From Desulfosudaceae bacterium (GTDB taxonomy: Bacteria > Desulfobacterota > Desulfobacteria > Desulfobacterales > Desulfosudaceae): 64,000 nt of DNA. Below are positions 17,378 through 47,219 of this stretch, piece after piece. The stretch covers positions 672,001 through 736,000 of the forward strand of contig CAXXDV010000003.1 of NCBI GenBank assembly GCA_963674745.2. Direction: 5' to 3'. A model generated the notes under the pieces. That model saw only the letters and a program-made list of their open reading frames with translations, was not told the DNA's origin and made no database searches. A program made the translations under genes and the position numbers. Each line of letters starts with the position of its first letter. Position 1 is the first letter of the stretch.

Positions 17378-17388
17378 AGAGGCGCCTT

Positions 17389-18435: not shown

Positions 18436-18436
18436 T

Positions 18437-26934: not shown

Positions 26935-27098
26935 GGCGGACTCCTTATTACGTTCAATTGTTTTGAGACATTTTTATCATGAAACCGTATCGTTTTCCAG
27001 AGACATGTGTTGAAAAACAGGCGGTGGTATTCTATTATCAGTCCGTATCAAGAGGGGGACTTAGGTTATCCGGTAATAAAATGCAAGAAGGAGCAGCA

Positions 27099-27935
27099 AT
27101 GAAATGGAGACAGTTTTTCACGCCTGTTAAATCCATGGACAGCGCACAAGCCCGGGAGATGATTGAGAACACGCCCCGGGAAGATATTTCTATTATTGAT
27201 GTGCGTCAGCCCGGTGAGTATAAGTCCGGTCATATTCCCGGCGCCCGTTTGATCCCGGTGGGTGAACTGGGTAACCGGCTGAACGAAATACCGGCTGATA
27301 AACCGGCTGTGGTTTATTGTGCTGTCGGCGGCCGCAGCCGGGTAGCGGCCCAGATGATGGCCGCCAAAGGGTTTTCCGATGTCATTAACCTGGCCGGAGG
27401 TTTCAAGGCCTGGAAGGGTAATGCGGCTGTCGGACCGGTGGACCAGGGCCTGGATTTTTTTTCAGGTCAGGAAACCATCGACCAGATACTGGCGGTGGCT
27501 TATTCCATTGAAGATGGTTTAAGGGATTTTTATCTCATCATGGCCGAAAAGGTCCGAAACGCTGAAGCCGCCGACCTGTTTGCAAAACTGGCGGAAATAG
27601 AAGTCAAACACCAGGATCGCGTCTACGGGATTTATAAAGCCCTGGCCGACCAGCCTATGCCAAGGGAGGCTTTTGTCACCGACCGGGTCGGTAATGTGAT
27701 TGAAGGCGGCCTGACGACCGAAGCCTATATCGCCATGTTCAAACCCGATATGGAATCGGTTGTCGATATTATCAGCCTGGCCATGTCCATCGAAGCCCAG
27801 GCCCTGGATCTTTATTCCCGGGCGGCTGAAGCGGTTACCCCTCCTGAGGGGCAGAAGGCGCTGGCACAGCTGGCCGATGAGGAACGGACGCATATCAGGC
27901 GGCTGGGAGAATTGATTGATGGGCTGTCTGAATAA
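27099..27935 (+). CDS. Rhodanese domain + ferritin-like (rubrerythrin) domain fusion
   Basis: IDVRQPGEY..GHIPGA, YCAVGGRS, NLAGGFKAW; then two E..FY/LY...LAxxExxH half-domains. Confidence 0.88.
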   Translation: MKWRQFFTPVKSMDSAQAREMIENTPREDISIIDVRQPGEYKSGHIPGARLIPVGELGNRLNEIPADKPAVVYCAVGGRSRVAAQMMAAKGFSDVINLAGGFKAWKGNAAVGPVDQGLDFFSGQETIDQILAVAYSIEDGLRDFYLIMAEKVRNAEAADLFAKLAEIEVKHQDRVYGIYKALADQPMPREAFVTDRVGNVIEGGLTTEAYIAMFKPDMESVVDIISLAMSIEAQALDLYSRAAEAVTPPEGQKALAQLADEERTHIRRLGELIDGLSE

Positions 27936-27942
27936 TACAGGC

Positions 27943-27999
27943 TCTTCTCCAATTTAATGTGCACAAAGGGTTCAAGGATTCAAGGGGTCGAGGGCTCAA
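27943..27999. repeat. Dispersed intergenic repeat, copy 2
   Basis: Matches 7095..7143 with one extra 8-nt unit (ATTCAAGG). Confidence 0.8.
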
Positions 28000-28054
28000 G
28001 TGTTTGTCATTGAAAGTTTTATGAATGCTAAACACATAATTTTTACAAAAGTTC

Positions 28055-29194
28055 ATGAAAGGTCCGGATATGGGGCATCTAGTATTAGCTGGCGGCGGTC
28101 ATGCCCACATGGTAACGCTGGAACATATTGATGATTTTGTCGGTCGCGGACACCGGGTCACGGTTATCGGCCCTTCGCCATATCATTATTATTCGGGTAT
28201 GGGGCCGGGCATGCTGGGTGGTTTTTATTCTCCGGACGATATCCGTTTTGCTACCCGACTGGTTACTGAAAAAAAAGGCGGGACGTTCGTGCATGACAGG
28301 GTTGAGCGTATCGACCCTGCAGAGAAAAGAGTCCACCTGGCATCCGGTGACACCATTGATTATGACGTTCTCTCCTGTAACCTGGGCAGTCAGGTGCCTG
28401 GGGATCTGATTACAAACGATTATGGTGACATCTACGCGGTCAAACCCATCGAAAAACTGCTTGAAGCACGGCAGCGGGCCATCGAAATCATGTCCGACAA
28501 TCAGGCTTCTATCGCTGTTGCCGGCGGTGGGCCGGCGGCATCCGAGATCGCGGGTAATATTTATCACCTGGCCAAAACCACGGGCAAGGCCATGCCTACC
28601 ATATACATGTGTGCCGGAAAAGGGTTTATGGGCCGGTTTCCTGAATCGGTCCGCAGCCGTGTTTATCACTCGCTGACCGAACGGGGTATTATTGTTGATG
28701 AATCCGGTTACGTTAAATCCATCGAAACCGGTGCCGTCACACTTGAGTCGGCTAAGATTATCGCCGCGGACCTGATTTTTGTGGCCCTGGGGGTGAAGCC
28801 ATCGCCGGTTTTCGCCGCTTCCGGTCTGCCGCTCGGTCCTGACGGCGGCCTGCTGGTCAACCAATTCCTGCAATCGCCGAAATATCCCGAAATTTTCGGC
28901 GGCGGTGACTGTATCTATTTTGAACCCCGTCCACTTGACAAGGTCGGTGTTTTTGCGGTCCGGCAGAATCCTGTTCTGTGTCATAATTTGATGGCAACCC
29001 TTGAAGACCAATCGTTGAAACCGTTTGACCCGGGCGGAGATTACCTGCTGATTTTCAACCTGGGCGATCGCCGGGGCGTGCTCAAAAAGAAATGGCTGAC
29101 CTTCAGCGGCCGGTCGGCATTCATGCTCAAGGATTATATCGACCGCCGGTTCATGAAAAAATTCCAGCGCATGGAGAAAAGTCAAAAGGCTTAA
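28055..29194 (+). CDS. FAD/NAD(P)-dependent pyridine nucleotide-disulfide-type oxidoreductase (resembles the N-terminal domain of SelD fusions)
   Basis: LAGGGHAH, YSGMGPG, VKPIE, GGGPAASE, GGGDC, KVGVFAVRQ, LKDYIDRRFM. Confidence 0.85.
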   Translation: MKGPDMGHLVLAGGGHAHMVTLEHIDDFVGRGHRVTVIGPSPYHYYSGMGPGMLGGFYSPDDIRFATRLVTEKKGGTFVHDRVERIDPAEKRVHLASGDTIDYDVLSCNLGSQVPGDLITNDYGDIYAVKPIEKLLEARQRAIEIMSDNQASIAVAGGGPAASEIAGNIYHLAKTTGKAMPTIYMCAGKGFMGRFPESVRSRVYHSLTERGIIVDESGYVKSIETGAVTLESAKIIAADLIFVALGVKPSPVFAASGLPLGPDGGLLVNQFLQSPKYPEIFGGGDCIYFEPRPLDKVGVFAVRQNPVLCHNLMATLEDQSLKPFDPGGDYLLIFNLGDRRGVLKKKWLTFSGRSAFMLKDYIDRRFMKKFQRMEKSQKA

Positions 29195-29253: not shown

Positions 29254-29940
29254 TCAGGGGTAGTATTTTTTCAGTTTTTCCGGATGAACACCGGCGTAGA
29301 ACAGGGTGGATAATATCCAGTTACGCAGGGTGGTATAAATCAGGCCTTCTTTTTTCCAGCGCCGGGCGGAAGTCGTCACCGGCTCGGGGATCAACCGGAT
29401 GCGATAACCGCGTTTCTTGATTCGCCGCATGAGGTCGATATCTTCCATGAGCGGCATCTCTGTAAACCCGCCCAGTTCCCTGAAACAGCCGGCTTTTATG
29501 AATATGGCCTGATCACCGTAAGGGATATGTGTGAGGCGGGAGCGAATCGAGGCGGCCTTTTCGATGATTCGAAAAGCCGGTCCGGGCGCATCTATGGCAA
29601 GGTCAAAGGCCCCGCCCACGGTCCCTGAATCGCGACAAACGTCCAGGATCGACCTGACAGCGGTTTCGGGCAGAATCGTGTCAGCATGAAGAAACAGCAG
29701 GATCTCTCCGGCGGCTTTTTCCGCGCCGGCGTTCATCTGGACGCTTCGGCCTGATGAGGCCTTTGTTTTGGTGACATCCGGGTCGGCAATCGCCCGCAGG
29801 GTGGTCTCCGACGGGTCTCCATCCACCACGATGATTTCCGTATCGGCATTTTTGTCCGTTGTCTTTATTTGAACAATTGTCCGATTGATCCGGTCAGCCT
29901 CGTCAAGCGCGGGGATAATTATGGATATCATCGGTTTCAT
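29254..29940 (-). CDS. TIGR04283-type GT2 glycosyltransferase (rSAM/selenodomain-associated, 'arsenosugar' family)
   Basis: SIIIPAL.E, GRSVQMNAGA, LFLHADT, PYGDQAIF, LMED, TSARRW. Confidence 0.92.
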   Translation of the reverse strand: MKPMISIIIPALDEADRINRTIVQIKTTDKNADTEIIVVDGDPSETTLRAIADPDVTKTKASSGRSVQMNAGAEKAAGEILLFLHADTILPETAVRSILDVCRDSGTVGGAFDLAIDAPGPAFRIIEKAASIRSRLTHIPYGDQAIFIKAGCFRELGGFTEMPLMEDIDLMRRIKKRGYRIRLIPEPVTTSARRWKKEGLIYTTLRNWILSTLFYAGVHPEKLKKYYP

Positions 29941-29966: not shown

Positions 29967-30770
29967 TCAGGGCTGGTCAGCGTTCGTGCCTGATTTGAAA
30001 ATGATATCGCCGTAAAAGGCGGTTGTTGCCTCGCCGGTGTTGTCTGAATCGGTCATGATGGCCACCCCGGAAATCATGGGGGGCGGCTGACCGAAACTGT
30101 CCACATAATCCTGATAGATATTTCTTTCTTCATTGACCCAGGTACCGGCCTTGTCCGGTCCGCTTTCCACGACAATCATCATGACCCGGTCGGTATAGGG
30201 GTTGGTTACCCGGGTGCCTTTTGCCGTCCGGCTTTCCCAGATATAATTGATGGCTCCGATGGGGGGATACTCGCCGTAAAGAATCCGGACTGTCTCAAAT
30301 TTTGCCTTTTCCAGAAACCCCACCCGATCGGCGTCATACTCAAAAGCAATATATATCCGGACCGGATAGTCATCACCGCTTTTTTTGGTAACATCTCCGT
30401 TTTCATATACACCGGTGATTTTCCAGTTCCACTGGATGACGGGATATTCCCGCGGGTCAATCCGCATTTTACGGATCAGCCCGGAAGCCGAAGCCTTGCT
30501 TTTGGCCCGGATGACGGTTTTCCCGTCTTCAACAACCGCTTCATACAGGGTATGATTGTCGATTTTTTTGAACGTCAACGGCTCCCAGTTTTCCGGAAGC
30601 CGGTCGGCCGCAGCGACAGCATTGGAAAAATCGCCCACCTTCAACACCTCTTCAGCTTTGATCCATCCGGGCTGAAAAAGTGCCATCAGGATAACCGCCA
30701 GTCCGCATAATGATATATTCTTTATATCGTTCATTTGTTGTAACCCCGTTGGTTGTATTACAGTCATCAC
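29967..30770 (-). CDS. DUF3047 domain exported protein
   Basis: SKASASGL, WNWK, DDYPVRIY, INYIW, AIMTDSDNTG motifs; start uncertain (30770 GTG or 30734 ATG). Confidence 0.87.
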   Translation of the reverse strand: MMTVIQPTGLQQMNDIKNISLCGLAVILMALFQPGWIKAEEVLKVGDFSNAVAAADRLPENWEPLTFKKIDNHTLYEAVVEDGKTVIRAKSKASASGLIRKMRIDPREYPVIQWNWKITGVYENGDVTKKSGDDYPVRIYIAFEYDADRVGFLEKAKFETVRILYGEYPPIGAINYIWESRTAKGTRVTNPYTDRVMMIVVESGPDKAGTWVNEERNIYQDYVDSFGQPPPMISGVAIMTDSDNTGEATTAFYGDIIFKSGTNADQP

Positions 30771-31459
30771 TTGATCTTTGCCTGTTGCAGGTAAGCCCGG
30801 GTGTGTTTGGCCAGCCCGGGGACTTCTTTCAGCGTCAGTGACAGGTTGTCAAGGTCTACGATGGTGTCAATATCCCGCCAGACCGGCAATATTATGGGCA
30901 CGATACCATTATCCCGGAACCGCTTCAGGGTGTTACTCAAAACCGTATCCGTTCCCCAGGAAATGTTGTCAAAAATTTCCGGTAGAAAACCGTCTGCCGT
31001 AAATCCGATCAGGTAATATCCGCCGTCCCGGCTGGGCCCGATGACGGCCGAGTTTTCCTTTAAACGATCAAAGGCTTCATCGATAATTTCCGGCAAAAGA
31101 TCGGGTAAATCAGAACCGATGATAATGGCCCGTTTAAAGCCCGCAAAAAATGTTTCAGCCAGGGCGTTTTTCATTTTTTCGCCCAGATTGTCGCCAGTTT
31201 GCGGGAAAATATCAAACCCGTCGCCCAGCCAGGACCGGATTTGATCGCCGGCCCGGGCCGGATAATAATAGACGCTGATATTCAAGCCGGTGGATTGAGC
31301 CATGGTCAGGACATCCGCAACAAAGCATCGATAGAGTTCCAGGGCGGCCGCATCACCGATTGATTCGGCCAGACGGGTTTTGACCGCGCCTTTTATTGGT
31401 GCCTTGAGAAAAAGAATAATGCGGAAGTCTTCTGATGTTTCATTTTGTTGTGTTGTCAT
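30767..31459 (-). CDS. TIGR04282-type (DUF2064) transferase (rSAM/selenodomain-associated, 'arsenosugar' family)
   Basis: KAP..GAVKTRL, QTGDNLGEKM, IIGSDLP, GPSRDGGYYLIG, WGT, DIDT..DL. Confidence 0.92.
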   Translation of the reverse strand: MTTQQNETSEDFRIILFLKAPIKGAVKTRLAESIGDAAALELYRCFVADVLTMAQSTGLNISVYYYPARAGDQIRSWLGDGFDIFPQTGDNLGEKMKNALAETFFAGFKRAIIIGSDLPDLLPEIIDEAFDRLKENSAVIGPSRDGGYYLIGFTADGFLPEIFDNISWGTDTVLSNTLKRFRDNGIVPIILPVWRDIDTIVDLDNLSLTLKEVPGLAKHTRAYLQQAKIK

Positions 31460-31464: not shown

Positions 31465-32988
31465 TTACTTGACGAATTCAAAGCTCTGATCAAAAAGGTC
31501 AGGGTCTGAAAAATAGGCTTTGCCGACCAGTTTCAATGCATGATGGCTGCGCTGGCGCATGCTGCCGACCTTGGGAATCCCCATGGAAAAAAGCAATAGC
31601 GGCTCTATGCGTTTTGAATTTTTGGCGATGCCGTGCCGGTTGAACATGCTTGCAAAGGTGCCGTCGGACGCGGGCAGCATCTCAAGAGACTTATAAGGGA
31701 CAAGCCGGTAGGGGATGTCCTTTGCCGGGGGCGGTTCGTAAGACAGACCGACCACCTGGTGCCAGTCGGCGTTGACATGGACATTGAGCGGGGTCCCGGA
31801 GAAGGATTCCGGCAGTCCGGCTGGCGCAAAGGCGTCTATGGTCAGGGACTGCGGTCTGACGGCCTTGACGGACCCGTCGGCCGGGACAAAAAAATGGTAA
31901 CAGCCGCAGTTGTTCATGATATCCACCATCACCGGCCGTCCGTCCTGCCCCAGGCTGATGCGGAAGGTCAGCCCGTCCAGCGTTCCTCTTTCAATCGATG
32001 GCGCGCCGGGTCCTGTCCGGGCCGGATACCACACCACATAGTTGATTTGAAGAACCGGTTGTCCGTTATAAAAGGCATTGGTGAAATAATAGTACATGGT
32101 CGGCCGGTCACCGGCCACGATGATATTATGCTCCTGCCATTTGATGGCACCGATACGGTCGTCATCACCACGGATATCCTGGGTCAGAACCGGCGCGAAG
32201 GCTGTGGCCAGCACCTGTTGGGTGTTTTCATTGGGTCGGGGGACGGACAGGGCATTGTTTGATGCTTTGAGTATCATCCGTTTGATCTCCTCGGTCGAAA
32301 GATCATAGCGCTGGTCCGGTATATAGGAAATCCAAGTCCCCCCGGGCAAAATGTTGTCAGTTTTCCTGTTGAGCCAGCGCGTCATCCGTTTATGGGCTTT
32401 TTTGGTCAGAAAAGCGACCGGCAGGGCGGCCAGGGGATAGACCCCGGCCACACGCATGGTGGTTTTATATTCACTCGGGCATTGGACCGCCTCTGACAAG
32501 GATTCATAAAATCCAGGCAGACTTCGATGTGCGGACAGCAGGCTGGCGGCACACGTTTCGGCATGGGTGGATAATGCCGCGATCGTGGGTGATAAACCCG
32601 CCCTGTCTGCCAGTTCTTGTCGTGCCTGTTTTGGCAGGCAGGCAATCTCGGTGTATCTGGCCCTGGTGTCCCGGGCTCGCATCCAGTCGACCCATACATC
32701 TTTTTCCGCCTGATTGGCAACACGGTTTTTCAGTCCGCATAAAAAACGGTCGGTTCTAAGATACGGAAAACCTTCCAGCCGGAACACGGCGGCATTGTTG
32801 ACACCCGCCTCGGCCACTGCTTTATCCAGGTCCATAAGAAAAGCCGCGCTGGCGGCTGTATCATCGCCAGCCGGAAAAACAGAGGGTTTTACACCCGGCG
32901 CGCAGGCACTTAAAGACAGTGCGCCTATGATGATAATGAACAGAATTTGAAACCGTTGTTTAAACTGTTTCGTGCTTAAAAATCTCAT
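31465..32988 (-). CDS. Uncharacterised lipoprotein
   Basis: Lipobox LSAC; motifs FPYLR, QINYVVWYP.R, NNCGCYHFF, MRQ..HHA. Confidence 0.8.
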   Translation of the reverse strand: MRFLSTKQFKQRFQILFIIIIGALSLSACAPGVKPSVFPAGDDTAASAAFLMDLDKAVAEAGVNNAAVFRLEGFPYLRTDRFLCGLKNRVANQAEKDVWVDWMRARDTRARYTEIACLPKQARQELADRAGLSPTIAALSTHAETCAASLLSAHRSLPGFYESLSEAVQCPSEYKTTMRVAGVYPLAALPVAFLTKKAHKRMTRWLNRKTDNILPGGTWISYIPDQRYDLSTEEIKRMILKASNNALSVPRPNENTQQVLATAFAPVLTQDIRGDDDRIGAIKWQEHNIIVAGDRPTMYYYFTNAFYNGQPVLQINYVVWYPARTGPGAPSIERGTLDGLTFRISLGQDGRPVMVDIMNNCGCYHFFVPADGSVKAVRPQSLTIDAFAPAGLPESFSGTPLNVHVNADWHQVVGLSYEPPPAKDIPYRLVPYKSLEMLPASDGTFASMFNRHGIAKNSKRIEPLLLFSMGIPKVGSMRQRSHHALKLVGKAYFSDPDLFDQSFEFVK

Positions 32989-33238
32989 CTGTCTTTAGTC
33001 CTTTCGGAATTTTAGACCTTTTTAAATACCCTCCTAACTGATCATCAGATGTTTTTGACCGGTATTTTAATTTTATATAAGGTCTGTTGCCATCATTCGG
33101 ATGAAATCCGGTTTGGAGGTGTTCTCTTTCAAAGTTTTTTAGTTCTCTGAACGAGCCGTTGTTCTCGACGTAAACATATGGGTAAGGTATTTGTAGAGCC
33201 TCTTCTGGTGAAACAATTGCGCGAGAAAGTTTGTTCAT
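32960..33238 (-). CDS. Small AT-rich hypothetical protein
   Basis: 92-aa ORF, visibly more AT-rich than neighbours; overlaps the lipoprotein start by 29 nt. Confidence 0.6.
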   Translation of the reverse strand: MNKLSRAIVSPEEALQIPYPYVYVENNGSFRELKNFEREHLQTGFHPNDGNRPYIKLKYRSKTSDDQLGGYLKRSKIPKGLKTDEIFKHETV

Positions 33239-33496: not shown

Positions 33497-36400
33497 TTAA
33501 ATTTTAAAATAGGGGCAATCCTTCTGGATACACTCCCTGTTCCTGCCCTGCTGGCGGCACTGAACATCTCCGTCGGCCTTTAATGGCAGGGGCAGGTAGG
33601 TCTCGGATAATTCAGCCGCCGCCTTTAAAGCCGTCCAGACCTCACGCTGACAGCAGCGGGCGGCTTCCGTCCGGTTCAATCGGCTGATAATGGCTTCGGA
33701 AACCTTTTGAATGATCTGGCGGGGGCCGGGTGCGAGCGGGTTGCTTTTTAAAATAATGCCAAAGGCGATACCCACGCCCACGGCCGCGCCGCAGGTACCC
33801 CAGAATCCGCAGGCCCCGCCGGGTACGGCGCGTCCCCGTTCAATGGCGGTAACAATATCCTTTTCGGTCAGGTCGCCCCCCAGGTTTTTGTAAGTCGCGG
33901 TAATTACCCCCGGTACCGCAAAATGGTGCTCGGGACCGTGAACGGAAAAAGCCGGGTGCCGTCTGAGTTGATTGATCAGGTCGATCATGTCCACTAAGTC
34001 GGTATGGGTACAGACATGTTTGACAATATCGACCATGTCGCTGCCATGGCAACTGTCACAGACAAAGTGACCGTCTTCGCAGGCCGCGTTGGCCATGAGT
34101 TTATTCCCGCAGAAAACGCAGGTTTCCTGCCGGTCTTCGGAAAAATAGATCAGTGGCTTACCGCACAGCATGCAATCCCGACTGTGTTTTGGATCATTGT
34201 TCATAAAAAGAGCTGTAACGGGGGCCGGTTTGTCCCCGGCCGATCGACTGTCCTCAGGCGGAACGGAACAGTCACAACTCACAGCACCTTCAGGTGGTAT
34301 GCCACAGCTGCAGGCATTGGCTGCTTCTATGTTGTCGACATTGCCCATGGCATCGAGTTTGAAAATCGCTGAATCACCCTGGGCGTCATAGGGCCAGTTA
34401 ATTTCCGATACCTGTCCCCGCAGCAATAACTCTCCATCGTCGGTTACCACGGCCGCGTAAGGACCGGGATACATGGCCGGGGATTTTTCTTCCGGCATGG
34501 GCCGAAAGGCCGTATAGGTGACCGAATAAAAGTGGTGCCCCAGGACTTCTTTGTAGAAAAAACGTTTGACGATGCGGATATGGCAGAACCCGGCCGATTC
34601 CAGGATGGCGATCAGATGGGGCTGGACCAGGGCGCCGGCAATGCATTCTCCGCGCAGTTTGGCATCATTCTGAATGGCCGGCGGGCAGGGGGTGTCGGTG
34701 ACGACGTCGGAAATGAAGATCCGTCCCCCGGGCGTAAGAACTCGGAATATCTCGGAAAATGTCCGGCGCTTATCTTCGGAAAGGTTGATCACACAGTTGG
34801 ATATGACCACGTCAACCGTTTTGTCGCTTACGGGAAGCTGCTCGAGAAAGCCCTTTTTAAATTCGACGTTCCGGTATCCCAGGTTATCGGCCACTTCATC
34901 CATGGGGCGCCGGGCCAGGGCCAGCATATTGTCCAGCATATCGATGCCTGTCACCGAACCTTTCGGTCCGACCTTGCGGGCGGCAATGTAACATTCGACC
35001 CCGGCGCCCGAACCCAGGTCAACAACTGTTTCACCGGGTTTAATGGCGGCATCCAGCACCGGGCTGCCGCATCCGTATGAGCGGATCCGGGCTGCGGGCG
35101 GGATGTGCGGCATCTCGGCATCGGGATAACAGACCGGGTTGGTGATGTCTGTGTTCTCATCTTCTGCGGCGGTGGAATAAAATTCGCCGACAACCCCGCG
35201 GGTGCCGGAGAAAGTCAGTACGCAGTTGGAATGGGTCAGGGCAACACCTTCCCCTTCCTGAATGCAGTGCAGCAGTTTTTCCCCCATTTTTCGCCGGATC
35301 TGGGGCCAGGGCCGTTCTTCGACAATTTGGGCGGATTGAACCATCAGCCACAATGCCAGACGATTATAGAGCGGTACATAAGGATCATGACCGACATAGG
35401 CACCACCGGCATAATAGCTGTGGTCAATGTCGCCACCGCCGATGATATATTTCAGGGGGTTGGCATTGTAGTTGGTATCGCTCACGATGGATAATTCCCG
35501 AAGGGACGCCAGCGCCGGACTGTTTCGCCAGACGTTTTCCAGGTTTTCGGAAATGTGACCGCAGACCGTGTCTTTGCGGCCGATCAAGGCGGGGGTGGGG
35601 TAAACACTGCCGTTCGGGCCGATGGCCAGCGACTCCCAGCCGGCATTGCCAAGATCGTATCTGGTCCCCGGCGTGGAAAACACCTGGGCTGACAGGTTGG
35701 AGATATTATCGATGGTCACATTGTTTTTTTTCGCCAGGGCATGAGATTGAACCAGGTCGGAAAACAGTGCGTCGGCCGGCACATACGACAGGCCGGATGC
35801 CCGTCCGGTGTTCAGCAGCCACATGTAGTGGACGCTGTTGATGTTGTGCCGTGCGGCCAGTGACACCATGTCCGTCATCTGGTGCCGGTTATCGGGCGTA
35901 ACCGCCATGGAAAGGGTCGTCTGGAGGCCCAGCCCGTCAAGGGCCGTCAGCCCGTTTACGATTTTTGCAAATGATCCCTTGCCTCGCAGGTCGTCGTTGA
36001 CATCTTCAAGTCCGTCCAGGCTGACCTGGAGAAAAAGCCGGTCGGATGGCAGCGACTGTAAAAAGGACCGTTGTTCCGGTAGTAAAATGCCGTTGGTCAG
36101 GATGGCCAGCATGGTATCGGGAAAATCAAACAGAACCAGACGGCATATCTGTTGAAAGTCCGGATGAACAAGGGGCTCTCCACCGGTCAGGTAAAAGACG
36201 CGGGTGCCCAGGCCGTATGCATCAGAAACAACCGTCTTGATCGATTCCAGGGAAAGCGTCGTCTGTGTCTTTGCCGAGCATGAAAACAGGCAATGACGGC
36301 AGGACAGGTTGCATTGATCGGTAATATGCAGCCAGCATTCTTTCAAGTGGTTCAGTTGCAGAGCGCCGGCACGTCCGTCATAATCTTCGATTTCCGGAGA

Positions 36401-36640
36401 CGTCAGCAGGGAAAGAAACTGGGTTACACGCATGATGTCCGCAAAATCGGTTCCGCCGGATGCTTTGGCATGATATCGGCGATCGCCGATAATCGCCATC
36501 TCACCATATTCGATTACATTCTGCAGCAAGCGGTCTCCGGTTGAACTGGGGACCATCCAGTCCGGCGTATCAGGCCGGATAAATACCGGTGTATTATCAA
36601 GTTCAAATCTTACCCAGTCCTCGAAACGGTTTTTCTTCAC
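33497..36640 (-). CDS. Radical SAM + degenerate SPASM-like + ArsM-like methyltransferase + Cys-rich (DUF5714-like) fusion protein
   Basis: CNLSCRHC, TGGEP, LTNG, SLDG; YGCGSP, DLGSGAG, SNCVINL, GECIAGA; CMLCG..CVFCG..CEDGHFVCDSCH, HGPEHH, GGACGFWGTCGAA, RCCQR. Confidence 0.9.
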   Translation of the reverse strand: MKKNRFEDWVRFELDNTPVFIRPDTPDWMVPSSTGDRLLQNVIEYGEMAIIGDRRYHAKASGGTDFADIMRVTQFLSLLTSPEIEDYDGRAGALQLNHLKECWLHITDQCNLSCRHCLFSCSAKTQTTLSLESIKTVVSDAYGLGTRVFYLTGGEPLVHPDFQQICRLVLFDFPDTMLAILTNGILLPEQRSFLQSLPSDRLFLQVSLDGLEDVNDDLRGKGSFAKIVNGLTALDGLGLQTTLSMAVTPDNRHQMTDMVSLAARHNINSVHYMWLLNTGRASGLSYVPADALFSDLVQSHALAKKNNVTIDNISNLSAQVFSTPGTRYDLGNAGWESLAIGPNGSVYPTPALIGRKDTVCGHISENLENVWRNSPALASLRELSIVSDTNYNANPLKYIIGGGDIDHSYYAGGAYVGHDPYVPLYNRLALWLMVQSAQIVEERPWPQIRRKMGEKLLHCIQEGEGVALTHSNCVLTFSGTRGVVGEFYSTAAEDENTDITNPVCYPDAEMPHIPPAARIRSYGCGSPVLDAAIKPGETVVDLGSGAGVECYIAARKVGPKGSVTGIDMLDNMLALARRPMDEVADNLGYRNVEFKKGFLEQLPVSDKTVDVVISNCVINLSEDKRRTFSEIFRVLTPGGRIFISDVVTDTPCPPAIQNDAKLRGECIAGALVQPHLIAILESAGFCHIRIVKRFFYKEVLGHHFYSVTYTAFRPMPEEKSPAMYPGPYAAVVTDDGELLLRGQVSEINWPYDAQGDSAIFKLDAMGNVDNIEAANACSCGIPPEGAVSCDCSVPPEDSRSAGDKPAPVTALFMNNDPKHSRDCMLCGKPLIYFSEDRQETCVFCGNKLMANAACEDGHFVCDSCHGSDMVDIVKHVCTHTDLVDMIDLINQLRRHPAFSVHGPEHHFAVPGVITATYKNLGGDLTEKDIVTAIERGRAVPGGACGFWGTCGAAVGVGIAFGIILKSNPLAPGPRQIIQKVSEAIISRLNRTEAARCCQREVWTALKAAAELSETYLPLPLKADGDVQCRQQGRNRECIQKDCPYFKI

Positions 36641-36664
36641 ATCAATCCTCTATAAAAATTCGGG

Positions 36665-38806
36665 TTATCCGCGTCGCCAGGCCAGGTAGCGTTGGACCAG
36701 GCCAAGGGCCTTTTCCGGCACCCGGGCTTTTTTCCACTCACCGGCCGCGAAACGGTTGGCCTCCGTCAGCGTGGGATAAATATGTATGGTGCCGAGCATT
36801 TTATTTAACCCGATATTGTGCTTCATGGCCAGGACAAATTCGGCGATCAGGTCGTCGGCCTGAGAACCGACGATGGTGACGCCAAGGATTGTATCTTTAC
36901 CCGGCCGGGTCAATACCTTGACAAACCCTCTGGCTTCCGAGTCGGTAATGGCCCGGTCAAGATCGTCAATATGATAACGGGTGATTTCATAGTCGATGTC
37001 GGCCGCTTGGGCTTCGGTTTCATTCAGGCCCACCCGGGCCACTTCCGGATCGGTAAACGTCGCCCATGGAATGACCCGGTAATCGATTTTGAATTTTTTG
37101 ATGCCGCCGAACAAGGCGTTTACAGCCGCGAACCAGGCCTGGTAAGCGGCCACGTGGGTGAACTGAAAGGGGCCGACCACGTCACCGGCGGCGTAAATAT
37201 TGGGCAGGGCGGTCTGCAACCGGTCATTGGTTTTGACGGTGCCGTTGGGATTGACCGCGACACCGATTTCTTCCAGGCCGAAGCCCCGGGTGTTGGCCCG
37301 GCGTCCCACAGCTACCAGCAGGGCGTCGAATTCAATGGTGACATCCCGGTCATCATGAAGGCAGACCAGTATTTTTTTGTCCTGTTCAACCCGGACTTCT
37401 TTGGCCTGGTGACGGGTCAGAACGGTTATGCCTTCTTCAATAAAGGTGTTTTTAATGAAATCCGCGACATCCTTGTCTTCACGGCCCATGATCTGGTGTG
37501 CCATCTCGACCTGTGTGACCCGGGAACCAAGACGCGCAAATGCCTGGCTAAGCTCGCAGCCGATGGGCCCGCCTCCCAGGACGACCAAGCGGTCGGGACG
37601 TTCCTTTAACGACCAGATCGTGTCGGATGTCAGGTAGTCGATCTGATCAAGGCCGGGAATAGGGGGTATCAATGGGCCGGCGCCGGTCGCTACCACGATG
37701 CTCCGGGTGGTGATGATCCTGTCGTTGACTTCGATTTCATAGGGGGAGGTAATCCGGGCCTGCCCGGAGATGCAGTCAACACCCAGATCGGTATACCGTT
37801 CGACGGAATCATGGGGTTCTATTTTTTTGATGATGTCTGTCACCCGCTGCATGACATCGGCAAACTCAAAATCCACCCGCGTCTGACGAAAACCGAATTC
37901 AGAGGCCCGGCGGGCGAAGTTCAGCATTCTGGCACTGCGGATCAGGGCTTTGCTGGGCACGCAACCGGTGTTCAGGCAGTCCCCGCCCATTTTGTCTTTT
38001 TCAATTAATGCCACGCCGGCCTTGACCGTGGCCGCGATATAAGCGGTCACCAGTCCGGCTGAGCCGGCCCCGATAACGACCAGGTTGTAGTCGAACCGGG
38101 ACGGTCGCCGGAAACGTGCCATCGCCCGCCTGTTCTTTACAAAATTCGTAAAGGCCCTGGCAACCCATGGAAACACGCCCAGCAGGGCAAACGAGGCGAT
38201 CAGTGCCGGTGAAAGAATGTCGCCCGGGGATTGGACCCGGGACAGCTGGGTACCGGCATTGATAAACACCAGTGTTCCGGGCAGCATGCCCACCTGGCTG
38301 ACGATATAGAACATGCCGGTCCGGATGGGGGTCAGTCCCATAACGACATTGATCACAAAAAACGGGAATATCGGCACCAGACGGAGGGTGAATAGGTAAA
38401 AGGGACCGTCTTTTTGAATGCCCTCATTGATCTTTTTCAACCGGTCGGCAAAACGGGTCTGGATATAATTTCTTAACAGAAAACGTGCCATCAGGAAGGC
38501 CAGGGTGGCACCGATGGTACTGGCAAAAGAGACAACGATCAGGCCGGTCAGCAGGCCGAACAACGCTCCTCCGGCCAGGGTCATAACAGCTGCTCCGGGA
38601 AGTGACAGGGCGGCCATGATGATGTAGGTGCCGGCATAGACGGCGATGGTCAGCAGGGTATGGTCGGTATAAAAAGCTTCCAGATCGGCCTGTCTGGCCT
38701 TGAGGTTGTCAAAGGTAATATGGTGGTGAAGCCCGGAGGCGAAAAACAGGGTAATCCCCAGGACAATCAGCACAAGCACAAGCAGTTTATAAAATCTACG
38801 GTTCAT
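36665..38806 (-). CDS. TVP38/DedA membrane domain fused to a flavoprotein disulfide reductase (Lpd/MerA-like)
   Basis: LSLPGA, LRLVPIFPF, GMLPGT (VTT/DedA); GAGSAG, GGDCLNTGCVP, GGGPIGCE, AAGDV, HIYPT..E. Confidence 0.92.
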   Translation of the reverse strand: MNRRFYKLLVLVLIVLGITLFFASGLHHHITFDNLKARQADLEAFYTDHTLLTIAVYAGTYIIMAALSLPGAAVMTLAGGALFGLLTGLIVVSFASTIGATLAFLMARFLLRNYIQTRFADRLKKINEGIQKDGPFYLFTLRLVPIFPFFVINVVMGLTPIRTGMFYIVSQVGMLPGTLVFINAGTQLSRVQSPGDILSPALIASFALLGVFPWVARAFTNFVKNRRAMARFRRPSRFDYNLVVIGAGSAGLVTAYIAATVKAGVALIEKDKMGGDCLNTGCVPSKALIRSARMLNFARRASEFGFRQTRVDFEFADVMQRVTDIIKKIEPHDSVERYTDLGVDCISGQARITSPYEIEVNDRIITTRSIVVATGAGPLIPPIPGLDQIDYLTSDTIWSLKERPDRLVVLGGGPIGCELSQAFARLGSRVTQVEMAHQIMGREDKDVADFIKNTFIEEGITVLTRHQAKEVRVEQDKKILVCLHDDRDVTIEFDALLVAVGRRANTRGFGLEEIGVAVNPNGTVKTNDRLQTALPNIYAAGDVVGPFQFTHVAAYQAWFAAVNALFGGIKKFKIDYRVIPWATFTDPEVARVGLNETEAQAADIDYEITRYHIDDLDRAITDSEARGFVKVLTRPGKDTILGVTIVGSQADDLIAEFVLAMKHNIGLNKMLGTIHIYPTLTEANRFAAGEWKKARVPEKALGLVQRYLAWRRG

Positions 38807-38836
38807 TTGAGGCTGATCTCCCGGGTTGTCTGATGA

Positions 38837-39172
38837 TTAGAGTTTTTCTTTATCCAGCCGTTCAAGATAGGCGTCCCATTCCACCGGTACCAGCCGGTTC
38901 TTTTCGGTGTTGCAGGTCTTGCAGGCCGGAACCACGTTGCCTTTTGTGGTTTTACCGCCCCGTGAAAGGGGCACGACATGATCCATTGTCATCTCCGCCG
39001 GCAAAAAGGACCGGCCGCAGTAATGGCAGACACCCCGGGCGATCTGCCTTTTCCACCACTGGGTCTTCCGCATTTCCCGGGCCTTGTTTTTTTCCCGCTT
39101 TATCCCGCTGTCACTGATCAGATTGTCACTGAAACGTGTTGTCCGGCGGTTTCTTTTTGGTCGATCAGCCAC
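38837..39172 (-). CDS. Small HNH endonuclease
   Basis: CHYCG...TMDHVVPLSRGG...NVVPACKTCN. Confidence 0.88.
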   Translation of the reverse strand: MADRPKRNRRTTRFSDNLISDSGIKREKNKAREMRKTQWWKRQIARGVCHYCGRSFLPAEMTMDHVVPLSRGGKTTKGNVVPACKTCNTEKNRLVPVEWDAYLERLDKEKL

Positions 39173-39981
39173 TGTTGTACCGCTTGTGTCAGTAATTGAT
39201 AATATTGCCGGGTCCCACCCAGGCCGCGCCGTCCAAAATAATAGTTGATCTCCAGGAAGAACGGCCGTTCGTTTTTTTCTGTTGATGAAAAAATCAGGTC
39301 AAAACCGGCCAGGTTGATGCCGGTTTGATCGCAGAATTTGCTTACCGCCCGGATGCCTTTTTCCCTGAGGTCCGGCCGCGTGTTTTTATCAATGGCGGCG
39401 CCACGGGCGGCGTTGACGCGGAAGTCGTCAGGATTCCGGCTGACCCGCCAGTAAGCGATAATGGTTTTGTATATAACACATACTCTCAGCACCCGGCCAC
39501 CGGTTTCAATGTAATCCTGGACAAGAAAGCCCGGGTCTCCTGTTTTTTCGGTTTTTGCCGCCAGGTCCAGAAACGGGGGAATGCCTTCGGCGGTTTTGAC
39601 CAGAAAGACACCACGGCCTTCGTCCGTTCCGTTCAGTTTCAGTACCACCGGAAAATCAAAGCCCGGATCCCCGGGGTGATTGACGCGGTTGTAAAAATCA
39701 ACGGTGTCAGAGAATATCACGGTTTCCGGGTGGGGTGTGCCGGTTTTCCGGAACAGCCGTATCTGGCCGGTTTTTCCCGGGTAGGCGAATTTGCTGTCAA
39801 AATTCGGAAACACGCTACGGCAATGGGCGCCGGCTGCTTCATACAGTTCTTTTTTGCAGGCCTGGGGCAGAATGACGGCCGAAGCCTGACTGATGGCCGC
39901 GATGTCTTCAGTCGTCAGATTTCTGCCGCCGCAATTGATGAACCGATCACCGGAAAAGCAGGGGTGAAACGAAAGGATCAT
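39118..39981 (-). CDS. RimK-like ATP-grasp protein
   Basis: FPVVLK, EGRGVFLV, LVQDYI, AGFDL, LEINY; ATG 39981 overlaps the era stop (ATGA). Confidence 0.82.
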   Translation of the reverse strand: MILSFHPCFSGDRFINCGGRNLTTEDIAAISQASAVILPQACKKELYEAAGAHCRSVFPNFDSKFAYPGKTGQIRLFRKTGTPHPETVIFSDTVDFYNRVNHPGDPGFDFPVVLKLNGTDEGRGVFLVKTAEGIPPFLDLAAKTEKTGDPGFLVQDYIETGGRVLRVCVIYKTIIAYWRVSRNPDDFRVNAARGAAIDKNTRPDLREKGIRAVSKFCDQTGINLAGFDLIFSSTEKNERPFFLEINYYFGRRGLGGTRQYYQLLTQAVQQWLIDQKETAGQHVSVTI

Positions 39982-40901
39982 GAGTAGCCGAACTCCGTCA
40001 AGTTGGCGTCGCTGGAGCGCCATTTGTCCTGGACCCGCACAAAAAGCTCCAGGTATACTCTGGCGCCGGTCATGCGCTGAATATCCAGGCGGCTTTTTTC
40101 ACCGATCTCTTTCAGCTGTTGTCCTTTTTTGCCGATGATAATGCCTTTTTGTGAGGACCTTTCCACATGAATAGTGGCCTGGATATGGATTACCGCGCCG
40201 CCCTTTTTTTCTTTGAATGAATCAATGCTGACAGCCGTTGAATATGGGATCTCCTGGTTGGTCAGGCGAAAAATCTTTTCCCTGATCATTTCCGCGGCAA
40301 TAAACCGTTCCGGCATATCGGTTACCATGTCATCCGGAAACAGGGGGGCACCGGAAGGAAGAAGCGTTTCCAGCACCCGGACCAGTTCGTCGGCCTGGTC
40401 ACCATGTTTGGCGGATACCGGAACAATATCGGAAAAGGCGTAGATGGTTCGCCATTGATCAATGTGCGCCAGAATGTCTGGCTTTTTGATCAGGTCGATT
40501 TTGTTCAGGGCCAGGACGACCGGCGTATTTATCCTTTCCAACTGGCGGACGATCAGCCTTGAATCGTTCATGCGGGGTCGGCCGGAAACGTCAATCATCA
40601 TCAGTATAAGGTCGACATCAGCCAGGGCGGATATGGCCGTATTGACGATCCGGGTATTGAGTTTGCCGGTGGCTTTGAAAATACCGGGCGTATCGATAAA
40701 GACCAGTTGCGATTTCTCCCGGCTGACAATACCCAGAATCCGGTTCCGGGTCGTCTGCGGTTTGTTTGACGTAATGGAGATTTTTTCGCCGGTCAGCCGG
40801 TTGAGCAGGGTCGATTTGCCGGCATTGGGCGGTCCGCAGATGGCGATAAATCCGGATCGGAAATCATTCTCCGGGTGGTTGTTTTGTGTCTTGCTCGTCA
40901 T
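39978..40901 (-). CDS. era: GTPase Era
   Basis: GPPNAGKSTL, KPQTTR, DTPG, NKID, EIPYS, KH-domain GIIIGKKG. Confidence 0.97.
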   Translation of the reverse strand: MTSKTQNNHPENDFRSGFIAICGPPNAGKSTLLNRLTGEKISITSNKPQTTRNRILGIVSREKSQLVFIDTPGIFKATGKLNTRIVNTAISALADVDLILMMIDVSGRPRMNDSRLIVRQLERINTPVVLALNKIDLIKKPDILAHIDQWRTIYAFSDIVPVSAKHGDQADELVRVLETLLPSGAPLFPDDMVTDMPERFIAAEMIREKIFRLTNQEIPYSTAVSIDSFKEKKGGAVIHIQATIHVERSSQKGIIIGKKGQQLKEIGEKSRLDIQRMTGARVYLELFVRVQDKWRSSDANLTEFGYS

Positions 40902-43056: not shown

Positions 43057-43249
43057 AACAAAAATTGTAAGTATCGGTTGAATATTATTAATCCCGTAAA
43101 ACCACATCTCCCCTCAAAGGATTTTTTCTGGATTGGAGAAAGACGTTTTTGGTTTTAAAGGCAATTCCGGCGGCGATGAATCCGGAATCCGCTGTTCTGG
43201 ATGCTTTCGGCCGGCAATGGTGTGCCGGCAACGGAGAAAATCGAAAATT

Positions 43250-46200
43250 ATGAGATCCCGAGTTTTTGCTATAAGAAACAACCCCTTGCCCTTCCTTTTT
43301 TCATGCTTTATCTGGGTTTCAATATCCCTTTTGATCGGTCAGGCATTTATTGTTCCAGATGCCGGCGCCCAATGCGTTTCGTGCGCCAGGGAACAATCCT
43401 TTGACAATCTTTTTCAAAAGCTCGAGCAGGCGGAATCAATCAGGGTCATTGTCTGGCTGGATGTGGACGGCATAAAAGATCTGACGGCCGCTTCCAATGG
43501 CTTTTCGGTGGTTGCACCGGGCAGATCATTTCCCCAATCCGGAAAAGACGCGGACCGCAGATTGAAAGCGGCCATTGATGGTGTGGCCGATGGGGTCGTC
43601 AACGCCCTGAAGGGAACGGCTTTTAGAGTAAGTTCAAGGTTTTCGACGCTTCCATTGATTGCCATGGAGGTTTCGGCCGACGCTCTGGCGACCCTGGAAA
43701 CACTGCCCCGGGTGGTTAATTGCGTGCCGGATCGACCGGTTAAACTCATCCAGCCCATCGAGGGAAGGGTACCGGCGGGCAAATCCGGCAAGACTGTATC
43801 GGGCAGGGGCGCTGCCGACTTGAGTAAACCGTTTTTAAACAATACCACCGGCATTATCGGGGCGGAAGACGCCTGGGCCATGGGGTACACCGGTTCGGGC
43901 TGGTATGTGGCCGTCCTGGATACCGGGATTCGAAGCTCGCACGCGTTTTTTGCCGGAAAAACCATCGTGGAAAAGTGCTATTCAGCAAACAATGACTGCC
44001 CGGATGGTACCGACGAGGACGAGGGTTCCGGGGCGGCCGCGCATTATGCGTCAAGTTATCAGGGCTATGATCATGGCACCCACGTGACCGGGATCGCCGT
44101 CGGCAACAACGGTACCCTGTTCGGGGTGGCCAAAGATGCCGATATCATTGCCGTTCAGGTGTTCTCCAGATTCCCGGCGACTAGGCCTGAATGCGGCGGC
44201 TCTCCCTGCGTCATGAGTTATGACAGTGATTCGCTCAAGGGGCTTGAATATGTCTACGGGTTACGGTCGACCTACAGTATTGCTTCGGTCAATATGAGCC
44301 TGGGCGGCGGTGCCTATTCAGACTTTTGTGATGATGAAGACGCCGACCGGAAAACGGCCATCGACAACCTGCGCGCGGTGGGCATTGCCACCGTCATTGC
44401 CACCGGCAATGAATACCTTTGCGGCCAGGTCAGTTCCCCGGCCTGTGTTTCAACATGTATATCCGTGGGCGCGTCGAATGATAGTGACGTCCAGGCCTCG
44501 TTCAGCAACTGGCATCCGGTCATGCAGCGGTTTTTTGCGCCCGGTGTGTCGATAAATTCTTCAACCGGCGTTTCGGACACCAGTTATGCGTCATGGGGCG
44601 GCACGTCCATGGCCACGCCCCATGTGGCCGGCGCCTGGGCCATTTTACGCCAGGCCGATCCCGCGGCCTCGGTAACGGATATTTACGATGATCTGACCGC
44701 AACCGGGACCCTGATAACCACCACCTGTGCGGGCGGCGGCAGTGTGCCCCGGATCAACATCGACCGTGCCATTTCCTGTGATCCTAATGCTTTAGCGGTT
44801 GACGCGTTCTTGCCGCAGGCATCGGCGGTCTTGATGCCCGGCAGCCAGGTGACGCTGAATGCCCGGGTGTCCGGTGATTGCGGCGGCCTGGTGGACGGCG
44901 TGACAGTATCGGCCACGTTTTCAAATGGCGATGGTGCAGTACAAATGTATGACGACGGCCTGCATGACGACGGGGCTGCTGACGACGGTCTTTATGGCAA
45001 CTGGTGGATACCGGTTAATGAACAGGACCCGACCACCATTACCTATACCGCTTCAAAAACCGGTTACACTTCAGGTTCGGACCAGGTTGATGTTACGGTG
45101 GTCATGGATTATTGTCCTGCCGGAGCAGGTGACAGTTCATATGAACATATCGCTAACGTGACCTTTGCCGGTATCGATAATGATTCGACCTATTCGGGCG
45201 GGTATGCGGATTATACCGCCGGTACACCGGCAAATGTGACAGCCGGGACAGACGTCAATCTCTCGGTAACCATCAGCCCGGACTCCGGGGATTATTTATC
45301 GGTATTTATCGACTGGAACCGGAACTTAATTTTTGATGATCCGGCTGAAAGATACGACCTGGCGGCTGCGACAGATCAATCCGGTCCGTTTACCACCCTG
45401 GTATCCGTTCCCGAGGACGCGGCCCTGGGTGATACGCGCATGCGGGTTGTGTTGAAATGGGGGGAACGTCCGGATCCGTGTGGCGGTTTTAACTATGGTG
45501 AAGTGGAAGACTATACGGTTAATATCGCCTGTTCTCCGATCATACTGGTAGTTGACGCCCTGTCACCCACGGCCGGTGCGTTTATAGTCCCGGGCGTTGC
45601 CACGCTCCTTCAGGCCGGTTTGGCCGATCAGTGCGGAGACCCGGTCAGCGGTGCGACCGTGGAGGCAACCTTTTCAAACGGCGACAGCCCGGTTCAATTG
45701 TATGACGACGGTCTTCATGATGACGGTGCCGCCGATGACGCTCTTTTCGCCGACTGGTGGACACCGGTTAACGAGCAGGACCCGACCACTATTACATTTA
45801 CGGCCTCAAAAACCGGTTACACATCGGGCACGGACCTGGTCGATGTGGCGGTTGTGTCCGATTATTGCGATGCCGGCGGGCTTGACAGCATAATGGAATA
45901 TATTACCAACGTGACCTTTGCCGGTATTGATAATGATTCTACCCAGGCGGGCGGATATGCGGATTATACGGCCGGTACCCCCGGGAATGTGACGGCCGGG
46001 ACAGACGTCAACCTGTCGGTTACCATCAATCCGGATGCTGATGATAATGTGTCGGTATTTATCGACTGGAACCGGAACCTGGTGTTTGACGATCCCGACG
46101 AGCGATATGACCTGGTGAGCGCGACGGATCAGCCCGGTCCGTTTTCTACGCTGGTGTCGGTTCCTGCGGATGCCGTTTTGGGCGACACGTGTCTGCGGGT

Positions 46201-47113: not shown

Positions 47114-47189
47114 TGATTAACGGTGATACCCGAAGTGCTTTTTTAATGGGCTGGTATTATATTAATATGCGCCGTTTTTATCTGACCGT

Positions 47190-47219
47190 TTGACTGGACG
47201 GAAAGACATCCTGTATAAT
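47190..47219 (+). promoter_or_regulatory. Sigma70-like promoter for subtilase 2
   Basis: TTGACT-18 nt-TATAAT. Confidence 0.6.

Follow-up and report, generated by a model that had tools for sequence, protein, structure and literature searches.

Which reaction is carried out by an enzyme that joins a radical S-adenosylmethionine (SAM) domain to an arsenite-methyltransferase-like domain in one polypeptide chain? The question is raised by a gene on the minus strand of the 64,000-nucleotide stretch of Desulfosudaceae DNA analyzed here, hereafter the window. It encodes a protein of 1047 residues (the fusion) from an anaerobic sulfate-reducer-type bacterium, in which radical SAM, ArsM-like and DUF5714 modules follow one another. 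With a probability of roughly 0.55, the fusion acts as a non-orthologous replacement of ArsS plus ArsM, methylating As(III) and creating an As-C bond. To our knowledge, just two ways of making carbon-arsenic bonds by radical SAM chemistry have been described, those of ArsS (arsenosugars) and ArsL (arsinothricin). ArsS and ArsL both come from aerobic or phototrophic model systems. The fusion family is common in anaerobic sulfur and iron bacteria.

Architecture of the fusion protein

The reading frame starts with GTG and runs uninterrupted through all 1047 codons. A first-pass annotation had described a single polypeptide with a radical SAM core and a methyltransferase, and had quoted several short cysteine motifs. 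All of these motifs were confirmed by translation at checked coordinates (Table 1), far beyond what chance would give, and the two domains do lie in one frame, with Pfam matches to Radical_SAM and Methyltransf_31 (E 3.4e-31). The annotation was right about these two modules and overlooked the zinc-ribbon/DUF5714 module, the RRE-like N-terminus and the cluster-less SPASM-like fold. From N- to C-terminus the protein consists of an RRE-like domain, the radical SAM core, a SPASM-like fold, a near-complete ArsM, a disordered linker and a zinc ribbon followed by DUF5714. The AlphaFold2 model of the whole protein, built on 59 relatives, has a mean predicted local distance difference test (pLDDT) score of 85.8 and a predicted template modeling score of 0.72. 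Structure matches were taken from a Foldseek list and re-examined with VIA-align.

A protein search yielded 1125 matches among 7999 scored candidates. Among the 120 matches listed, 115 are 1010-1092 aa long, with 98-100% query coverage and 44-100% identity, and the remaining five have 785-976 aa. The named relatives among these listed matches are Desulfobacter, Desulfoluna, Desulfosarcina, Dissulfurirhabdus and Desulfurivibrio, and their database names are 'DUF5714 domain-containing' or 'methyltransferase domain-containing', nothing more specific. All conservation counts given below refer to 59 aligned relatives out of the 120 listed. No paper on DUF5714 or on radical SAM-ArsM fusions was found among openly licensed PMC papers and bioRxiv, subscription-only papers lying outside this search.

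The methyltransferase module is of the ArsM type

Class I methyltransferase models from Pfam cover residues 533-667, with Methyltransf_31 as the best match, and the SAM-binding glycine-rich motif reads VVDLGSGAG. In NCBIfam the top match is arsenite methyltransferase NF008823 (234 bits, E 2.1e-69, profile positions 36-232 of 272). Further ArsM models rank after it, and scores of 120-134 bits are reached with the models ArsM/AhpD and ArsM/DUF2284. The best sequence matches among solved structures are ArsM enzymes as well, namely 5evj (E 6.5e-38), 4fr0 (5.6e-35) and human AS3MT 8xt7 (4.4e-33). VIA-align places model residues 503-765 on residues 49-343 of the CmArsM chain 4fr0 with a Z score of 27.8 and a root-mean-square deviation (rmsd) of 6.4 over 261 aligned residues, and residues 506-764 on human AS3MT 8xt7 with a Z score of 22.7 over 250.

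In a phmmer alignment, C524, C616 and C666 fall residue for residue on C72, C174 and C224 of 4kw7, which we take to be the As(III)-binding and catalytic cysteines (CmArsM numbering); PDB titles name C72A and C224A as arsenic-binding-site mutants. C524 is kept in 58 of the 59 relatives, and C616 and C666 are kept in all of them. Other conserved cysteines are C473 within THSNC and C550 (both 59/59), C459 (58/59) and C504 (47/59). The methyltransferase-DUF5714 protein P0151 (604 aa), which has only these two modules, aligns to residues 466-1046 with 40% identity. Since this alignment includes the HSNC sequence, the motif belongs to the methyltransferase module. Compared with CmArsM (4fr0/4fsd/6cx6), CrArsM (5evj) and human AS3MT (8xt7), the module has 33-35% identity, a fold match over chain residues 42-344 and an intact triad. 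It differs from them in being embedded in 1047 residues, in carrying the extra invariant THSNC, and in having xNPxC in place of the N-terminal CC: the CC pair that is conserved upstream in stand-alone ArsM relatives aligns to TNPV, followed by C504, in the fusion. The fourth, N-terminal cysteine of ArsM enzymes belongs to this CC pair, and C504, close by, may or may not be its counterpart.

A quick IQ-TREE phylogeny was calculated from 50 rows, labeled by hidden Markov model scores. They comprised 20 fusion domains (every third of the 59), one two-module protein, the 11 nearest stand-alone relatives, nine proteins passing NF008823, four long cyanobacterial-type ArsM-like proteins and, as outgroup, five unrelated methyltransferases from the own genome. 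The triad cysteines are present in all 45 ArsM-like rows, with one fusion row excepted at C524. Fusion and two-module domains form one clade with a Shimodaira-Hasegawa-like approximate likelihood ratio support of 85 (fusions alone 90). This clade is sister (93) to the group of stand-alone and cyanobacterial-type proteins, with the ArsMs that pass the cut-off (90) falling outside. Outgroup branches in this tree are very long, and support for the root is only 77%. The ArsM-type assignment made in the first-pass annotation is thus upheld by sequence, by the structural model, by the conserved triad and by a position within the ArsM-like radiation. The domain phylogeny that it had asked for does not group the methyltransferase outside ArsM, with the root support of 77% to be kept in mind.

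The fusion occupies the cassette position of ArsS

On the same strand, the genes of the window are arranged in the order DedA-MerA-like reductase, fusion, 92-aa open reading frame (ORF), lipoprotein, TIGR04282, DUF3047 and TIGR04283. The reductase gene lies upstream of the fusion and ends 24 nt before it. In twelve annotated loci of other genomes the canonical order is DedA-MerA-like reductase, DUF547 (in some cases), an AhpD-like CMD protein of about 110 aa, ArsS with DUF3641, and TIGR04282/TIGR04283. The fusion of the window fills the slot between reductase and transferases, where ArsS sits elsewhere. In 29 genomes a protein homologous to the DedA-MerA-like reductase over its full length (58-70% identity) is encoded, and in six of them (G034, G042, G095, G021, G148, G011) its gene adjoins ArsS. 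Seven further genomes (G001, G064, G085, G044, G109, G054, G088) have an unfused MerA-like gene at a distance from ArsS of about 650 nt or less. DUF3047 is part of the same cassette at loci L033, L052, L054 and L056.

According to passages citing Xue et al., arsS of Synechocystis neighbors arsM, is co-transcribed with it and uses the methylarsenite that ArsM makes; excerpts describe ArsS as splitting the C-S bond of the adenosyl group through radical chemistry. The system of the window resembles this pair in combining a radical SAM enzyme with an ArsM-type methyltransferase, in the accessory genes (TIGR04282, TIGR04283, DUF3047 and the DedA/MerA-like reductase) and in cassette position. It differs in its CteB-like RRE/SPASM radical SAM part, the absence of DUF3641, the added zinc-ribbon/DUF5714 module and the single chain. 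In addition, the AhpD-like gene is missing from the operon of the window.

The modules of the fusion recur in this type of cassette in other combinations. Genome G053, which bears ArsS, has a stand-alone zinc-ribbon/DUF5714 protein of 253 aa between a DedA-MerA-like gene and DUF3047 (L052:2535-6387). This protein is 64% identical to residues 817-1046, and a normal ArsS cassette lies on another contig. Hence, the DUF5714 module belongs to the ArsS-type system even without the fusion. Genuine ArsS is itself fused to an ArsM-like domain in G314 (L058:2556-4544, 662 aa; cassette of TIGR04283, a VTT-containing protein and TIGR04282) and in G308 (L059:2296-4302, 668 aa; adjoining a MerA-like gene). 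These proteins score 368 and 370 bits with TIGR04167 over residues 10-308, and 151 and 165 bits with NF008823, respectively. G284 and G372 may share this arrangement, to judge from their frames of 692-704 aa. Like the fusion, the proteins of L058 and L059 unite radical SAM and ArsM-like domains in one chain within a similar cassette, but they contain genuine ArsS, lack DUF5714 and RRE, and have methyltransferases only 33-36% identical to that of the window. Consequently, at least two such fusions between a radical SAM enzyme and an ArsM-type methyltransferase have arisen in this system, drawing on different radical SAM subfamilies.

One in-frame TGA, consistent with selenocysteine, is found in the majority of the order's ArsS genes and in many of its stand-alone ArsM-like genes; the fusion of the window has cysteines only.

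Distribution of the fusion and of ArsS

Two genome samples were examined, one of the order (151 genomes) and one of the phylum (251 genomes), with seven genomes common to both. In the order sample the fusion occurs in 15 genomes, a count that takes in a partial copy with stops from a genome that is 60% complete and a copy divided between two contigs. TIGR04282 is present in each of the 15, compared with 92/151 overall, and the fusion is absent from all 59 genomes that lack TIGR04282. ArsS is found in 45 of the 151 genomes (44 above cut-off), usually adjoining TIGR04282, and in only one of the 15 with the fusion (G033). The phylum sample gives the same picture: 19 of the 251 genomes have the fusion, TIGR04282 is present in all 19, the 129 genomes without TIGR04282 have no fusion, and ArsS accompanies the fusion twice (G231, G385), while 85 of the 122 TIGR04282-positive genomes have ArsS. 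Fisher tests within the TIGR04282-positive genomes give p = 0.0012 for the order and 7e-9 for the phylum, both overstated because the genomes are related. Fusion and ArsS are thus nearly complementary in their distribution, and the fusion genomes span at least 25 family codes. In the genome of the window no ArsS was found; the best TIGR04167 match is the fusion gene itself (50 bits). A canonical stand-alone ArsM (308 bits) is encoded elsewhere in this genome.

In nine of 32 distinct fusion genomes, from at least eight families, the fusion lies no more than 1.5 kb from TIGR04282 (G000, G134, G133, G231, G296, G347, G222, G345, G286). Three of these genomes (G347, G286, G345) have complete operons. 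TIGR04283, TIGR04282, fusion, VTT and MerA-like gene are contiguous on one strand in G347, and a dicluster/VTT protein, TIGR04282, TIGR04283 and the fusion follow one another in G286. G345 (L063:1681-4967) has the order of G286, with the fusion split into a 761-aa radical SAM and methyltransferase protein and a 334-aa linker and DUF5714 protein whose genes overlap by 4 nt. The link to arsenic that the first-pass annotation had drawn from the methyltransferase is strengthened by this tie, in position and distribution, to the ArsS/TIGR04282/TIGR04283 cassette, evidence that was new to it.

The radical SAM half resembles peptide maturases

The three cysteines of the radical SAM motif (C110, C114, C117) are kept in all 59 relatives, and the TGGEP sequence (T152-P156) is invariant. 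The RRE-like domain was recognized in the model; residues 1-100 searched alone against Pfam gave no match. In the region following the core, Pfam SPASM scores 20.1 bits (E 7.8e-4), under its cut-off of 21.5. C360, kept in 50 of the 59 relatives, is the only cysteine within residues 265-445, and therefore the seven-cysteine SPASM motif is absent. VIA-align superimposes model residues 7-440 on residues 2-450 of the sactipeptide maturase CteB (5wgg_A) with a Z score of 30.0 and an rmsd of 4.0 over 405 aligned residues (Foldseek E 4.7e-15), and the further top matches of this half are SkfB, SuiB, anSME and ChlB. Judged by the model, the radical SAM part is a CteB-like module of RRE, radical SAM core and SPASM fold.

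The first-pass annotation had drawn a parallel to ArsS and ArsL for this part, which did not hold. The fusion scores 50.1 bits with TIGR04167, against a cut-off of 300, and the match covers only the N-terminal 150 profile positions. DUF3641 (PF12345) gave no match in the 1047-aa protein at E <= 0.01, whereas real cassette ArsS proteins have it (E 1e-45). The fold of residues 7-440, including the RRE-like domain, is shared with CteB (5wgg/5why), SkfB (6efn) and SuiB (5v1t). Unlike these maturases, the fusion has neither the cysteine motif of an auxiliary [4Fe-4S] cluster nor, in the loci compared, a neighboring precursor peptide, and it is joined to ArsM and DUF5714. A precursor was sought by all-against-all comparison of 676 small ORFs from 12 loci, and no conserved ORF of 25-150 aa was found within 2.5 kb of the gene; the cross-locus matches were only antisense shadows of TIGR04282 and one weak pair. 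A distant peptide, or the protein itself, may still be a substrate of the radical SAM module.

Linker and zinc-ribbon/DUF5714 module

Residues 778-815 of the linker are disordered in the model (pLDDT < 50). Of the two cysteines at its head, C777 is kept in 58/59 and C779 in 52/59 relatives. DUF5714 (PF18978) matches residues 873-1045 over its entire profile (1-173 of 173) with 190.7 bits, exceeding the gathering score of 26.2. Fifteen cysteines and three histidines are invariant in the zinc-ribbon/DUF5714 module, in motifs of the form CxxC...CxxC, CxxxHxxCxxCH, GxCGxWGxCGA and RCC. In NCBIfam the C-terminus resembles MbdU (NF045648, 133 bits), by name a 'metal-binding double selenoprotein', which appears in PMC13188914 as a table entry. 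The two share the Cys/His pattern and the family membership of residues 818-1047, but MbdU is a separate, longer selenoprotein, while the module of the window contains cysteines only and forms the C-terminus of an enzyme. In G022, a DUF5714 match that contains a TGA proved to be a remnant of the C-terminal part; its CC pair is intact, and it gives no clue as to which Cys becomes selenocysteine.

Modeled separately, the module reaches a pLDDT of 92.6. Foldseek found no match to this fold in the PDB at E <= 0.001 (best 0.87), and a search of the ESM Atlas gave no usable match. VIA-align over 48,161 chains gave candidates with Z scores of at most 6.0 (CyuA with a [2Fe-2S] cluster, 9fsl) and 5.7 (split-Soret cytochrome, 1h21), both below the level that is meaningful for this tool, and they were rejected. 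Both are Fe-S-bearing helical domains. A lenient Pfam scan returned only C_GCAxxG_C_C (E 0.0031, 18 bits against a cut-off of 27), which is a lead only.

An exhaustive HMMER search with residues 810-1047 retrieved 1025 representative clusters at E <= 0.001, many of them stand-alone proteins of 230-260 aa. Among 24 scanned matches, DUF5714 is joined to ArsM-like methyltransferases and to radical SAM enzymes of other types (two with an HMPTM zinc ribbon). Single cases each combine it with LMWPc (ArsC-type phosphatase fold), GGDEF, an alanine-racemase-like domain or a kinase. The partners that recur are enzymes that use SAM. Forms with only methyltransferase and DUF5714 are P0151, P0122 and P0140.

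Proposed function

Arsenic as the substrate is an inference, and so is any channeling of the two SAM chemistries on one metalloid centre, as proposed in the first-pass annotation. On the preferred reading, the gene would encode the central enzyme of an organo-arsenical pathway that is a variant of the ArsS type (arsenosugar-like), with one chain replacing the separate ArsS and bringing its own ArsM. Presumably, As(III) is bound by C524, C616 and C666 of the ArsM module and methylated with SAM. The radical SAM module would cleave a second SAM and attach carbon to the arsenic of the trivalent methyl-arsenical; if it works like ArsS, the simplest radical step would be the transfer of a 5'-deoxyadenosyl group. 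The Cys/His-rich DUF5714 module, perhaps together with the CxC arm of the linker, may hold a metal, an Fe-S cluster or a metalloid, or may relay reducing equivalents. The DedA-MerA-like reductase could supply or regenerate thiols, and TIGR04282, TIGR04283 and DUF3047 could process the product further.

Several observations weigh against ascribing As-C bond formation to the fusion. Its radical SAM module has no homology to ArsS outside the superfamily core, lacks DUF3641 and resembles a peptide maturase. The methyltransferase lies just under the NCBI threshold (234 bits, curated NF008823 cut-off 263), as do its closest stand-alone relatives (227-256 bits). The word 'arsenosugar' in the names of TIGR04282 and TIGR04283 goes back to association only, and we know of no arsenosugar chemistry in these anaerobes. 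Of the genomes with TIGR04282, 37 of 92 in the order sample and 20 of 122 in the phylum sample lack both ArsS and the fusion. Among these is G129 of the same genus, which keeps the lipoprotein, TIGR04282, DUF3047 and the TIGR03169-like gene without a fusion there. In 23 of the 32 fusion genomes the gene has no transferase neighbor on the same stretch, the genes being on different contigs or far apart. Likewise, ten of the 12 fetched loci of the order sample are without transferase genes and have unrelated neighbors with no common theme; ArsR, Acr3 and ArsC are absent from these ten as annotated.

The same architecture and cassette could act on Se, Te or Sb and yield an organo-selenium or related product, which we consider unlikely. 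The in-frame TGA codons of the ArsS family and of many ArsM relatives of the order, the resemblance of the DUF5714 module to the double selenoprotein MbdU, and the opposite-strand TIGR03169-like ('N-terminal to SelD') and rhodanese-rubrerythrin genes, the former also beside DUF3047 in the same-genus genome, would fit such a substrate. However, selenocysteine in an enzyme is uninformative about what the enzyme acts on, and selD, selA and selB are absent from the window. In its cysteine triad and its fold as a whole, the methyltransferase agrees with enzymes whose structures were determined with As(III) and aryl-arsenicals, and ArsS, in the excerpts the sole characterized member of the partner system, acts on arsenic.

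Distinctly unlikely, in our estimate, is a self-contained, carrier-style assembly line for organo-metalloids. Here, As(III), or Se or Sb, would be held on the CxC arm, docked in cis by the RRE-like domain, and passed between the sites of ArsM and radical SAM before reaching the metal site of DUF5714. If true, a peptide-maturase scaffold would have given anaerobes a second, independent enzyme that forms As-C bonds by radical chemistry.

It is distinctly improbable that the radical SAM part keeps an ancestral peptide or protein job, on a separate peptide or on its own Cys-rich arm or DUF5714, with the methyltransferase then methylating the product. The superposition on CteB including its RRE domain, the other maturases among the top matches and the conserved CxC-PPE motif on a disordered arm would fit such an enzyme. 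But the auxiliary-cluster cysteines of these maturases are missing, the 12 loci offer no conserved small ORF, an intact ArsM triad is unexpected in a peptide methyltransferase, and the strict tie to TIGR04282 and the anti-correlation with ArsS would be left unexplained.

Equally poor are the chances of an elaborated detoxifying arsenite methyltransferase in which radical SAM and DUF5714 act as internal redox or Fe-S partners without any As-C bond being made by a radical step: ArsM-like domains are indeed repeatedly fused to redox-type Cys or selenocysteine domains (the ArsM/AhpD and ArsM/DUF2284 models), methyltransferase-DUF5714 forms exist, and C_GCAxxG_C_C is a weak 'redox-active' match, but the SAM-cleaving motifs CxxxCxxC and GGE are invariant (59/59), the genome already has its canonical stand-alone ArsM, ars resistance genes are absent nearby in 12 loci, and the complementarity with ArsS is not accounted for.

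For the preferred function as a stand-in for ArsS plus ArsM, the ArsS/ArsM pathway context is known, and what is new is a non-orthologous enzyme and an extra domain of unknown fold. If the fusion forms As-C bonds, anoxic sediments would be a place where complex organo-arsenicals are made, by an enzyme with another ancestry, a peptide-maturase scaffold would have been recruited convergently, and DUF5714 would gain its first functional handle.

Neighborhood of the fusion gene

The coordinates of all features are compiled in Table 1.

Table 1. Features of the fusion gene and of its surroundings in the window.
Feature	Position	Strand	Basis
Whole gene, three-module radical SAM / ArsM-like / DUF5714 protein, 1047 aa	33497..36640	-	single open frame, Pfam, NCBIfam, AlphaFold2 model
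CNLSCRHC motif	36290-36313	-	translation
THSNC motif	35222-35236	-	translation
YGCGSP motif	35060-35077	-	translation
SNCVINL motif	34781-34801	-	translation
GECIAGA motif	34631-34651	-	translation
RRE-like N-terminal domain, residues 9-77, with three strands preceding three to four helices	36410..36616	-	model secondary structure
Radical SAM core, residues 106-261, with CNLSCRHC and invariant TGGEP	35858..36325	-	Pfam PF04055 E 4.1e-19
SPASM-like fold, residues 265-445, without auxiliary-cluster Cys motif	35306..35848	-	weak Pfam SPASM, CteB/anSME fold match
ArsM-like module, residues 459-765: C459, THSNC(473), SAM-binding Rossmann core, C524/C616/C666, ArsM-type C-terminal beta domain	34346..35266	-	profiles, alignment, fold
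C777-x-C779-x-x-P-P-E motif, head of disordered linker	34196..34312	-	conservation, consensus, pLDDT
Zinc-ribbon and DUF5714 module, residues 818-1047	33500..34189	-	Pfam PF18978 E 2e-56, conservation, module model
VTT/DedA membrane domain fused to MerA/Lpd-like flavin adenine dinucleotide disulfide reductase, 713 aa	36665..38806	-	Pfam, NCBIfam
92-aa ORF, no family	32960-33238	-	Pfam, NCBIfam
Predicted lipoprotein, 507 aa, no family	31465-32988	-	Pfam, NCBIfam
TIGR04282 (DUF2064) 'arsenosugar biosynthesis glycosyltransferase'	30767..31459	-	195.1 bits, cut-off 134
DUF3047 protein	29967..30770	-	Pfam E 4.7e-81
TIGR04283 'arsenosugar biosynthesis glycosyltransferase' (GT2)	29254..29940	-	249.9 bits, cut-off 182
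Rhodanese-rubrerythrin fusion beside TIGR03169-like ('N-terminal to SelD') pyridine nucleotide-disulfide oxidoreductase	26979-29194	+	TIGR03169 257 bits, below 310
Perfect 8-bp GC-rich hairpin GGGCACCC / GGGTGCCC, 6-nt loop	33357-33378	-	
Small HNH endonuclease ORF	38837-39172		
Tandem very large genes (1326 and 1450 aa), each with subtilase S8 and two or three GEVED domains	43133-51657	+	
Adjacent SPFH/Band-7 gene pair	24178-26300	+	
TolC/adaptor/RND efflux operon	16004-21523	+	

The window contains no ars resistance or selenium-utilization genes, and Rfam gave 0 matches over its whole length at gathering thresholds. The hairpin is located 120 nt past the stop of the fusion, within the 258-nt gap before the next ORF. 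Because it is not followed by a clear T-run, the transcript boundary at this site is uncertain. The 92-aa ORF and the lipoprotein (31465..33238) are not part of the cassette in other loci according to tblastn, with the exception of the same-genus genome G129. In G129 the DedA-MerA-like gene lies elsewhere in the genome (loci L054, L055).

The G+C content of the fusion/reductase stretch (34001-40000) is 54-56%, compared with 51-52% in the flanks, and the HNH ORF comes next after the two genes. Together with the comparison to G129, these features hint at a rearrangement or a lateral gain.

The rhodanese-rubrerythrin and TIGR03169-like genes are divergent from the transferase genes. In G129, too, the TIGR03169-like oxidoreductase (72% identity) adjoins DUF3047. 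Farther away on the plus strand are the tandem subtilase/GEVED genes and, upstream of the locus, the SPFH/Band-7 pair and the efflux operon; an RND permease likewise directly precedes the cassette in G347 (L061:1611-4679).

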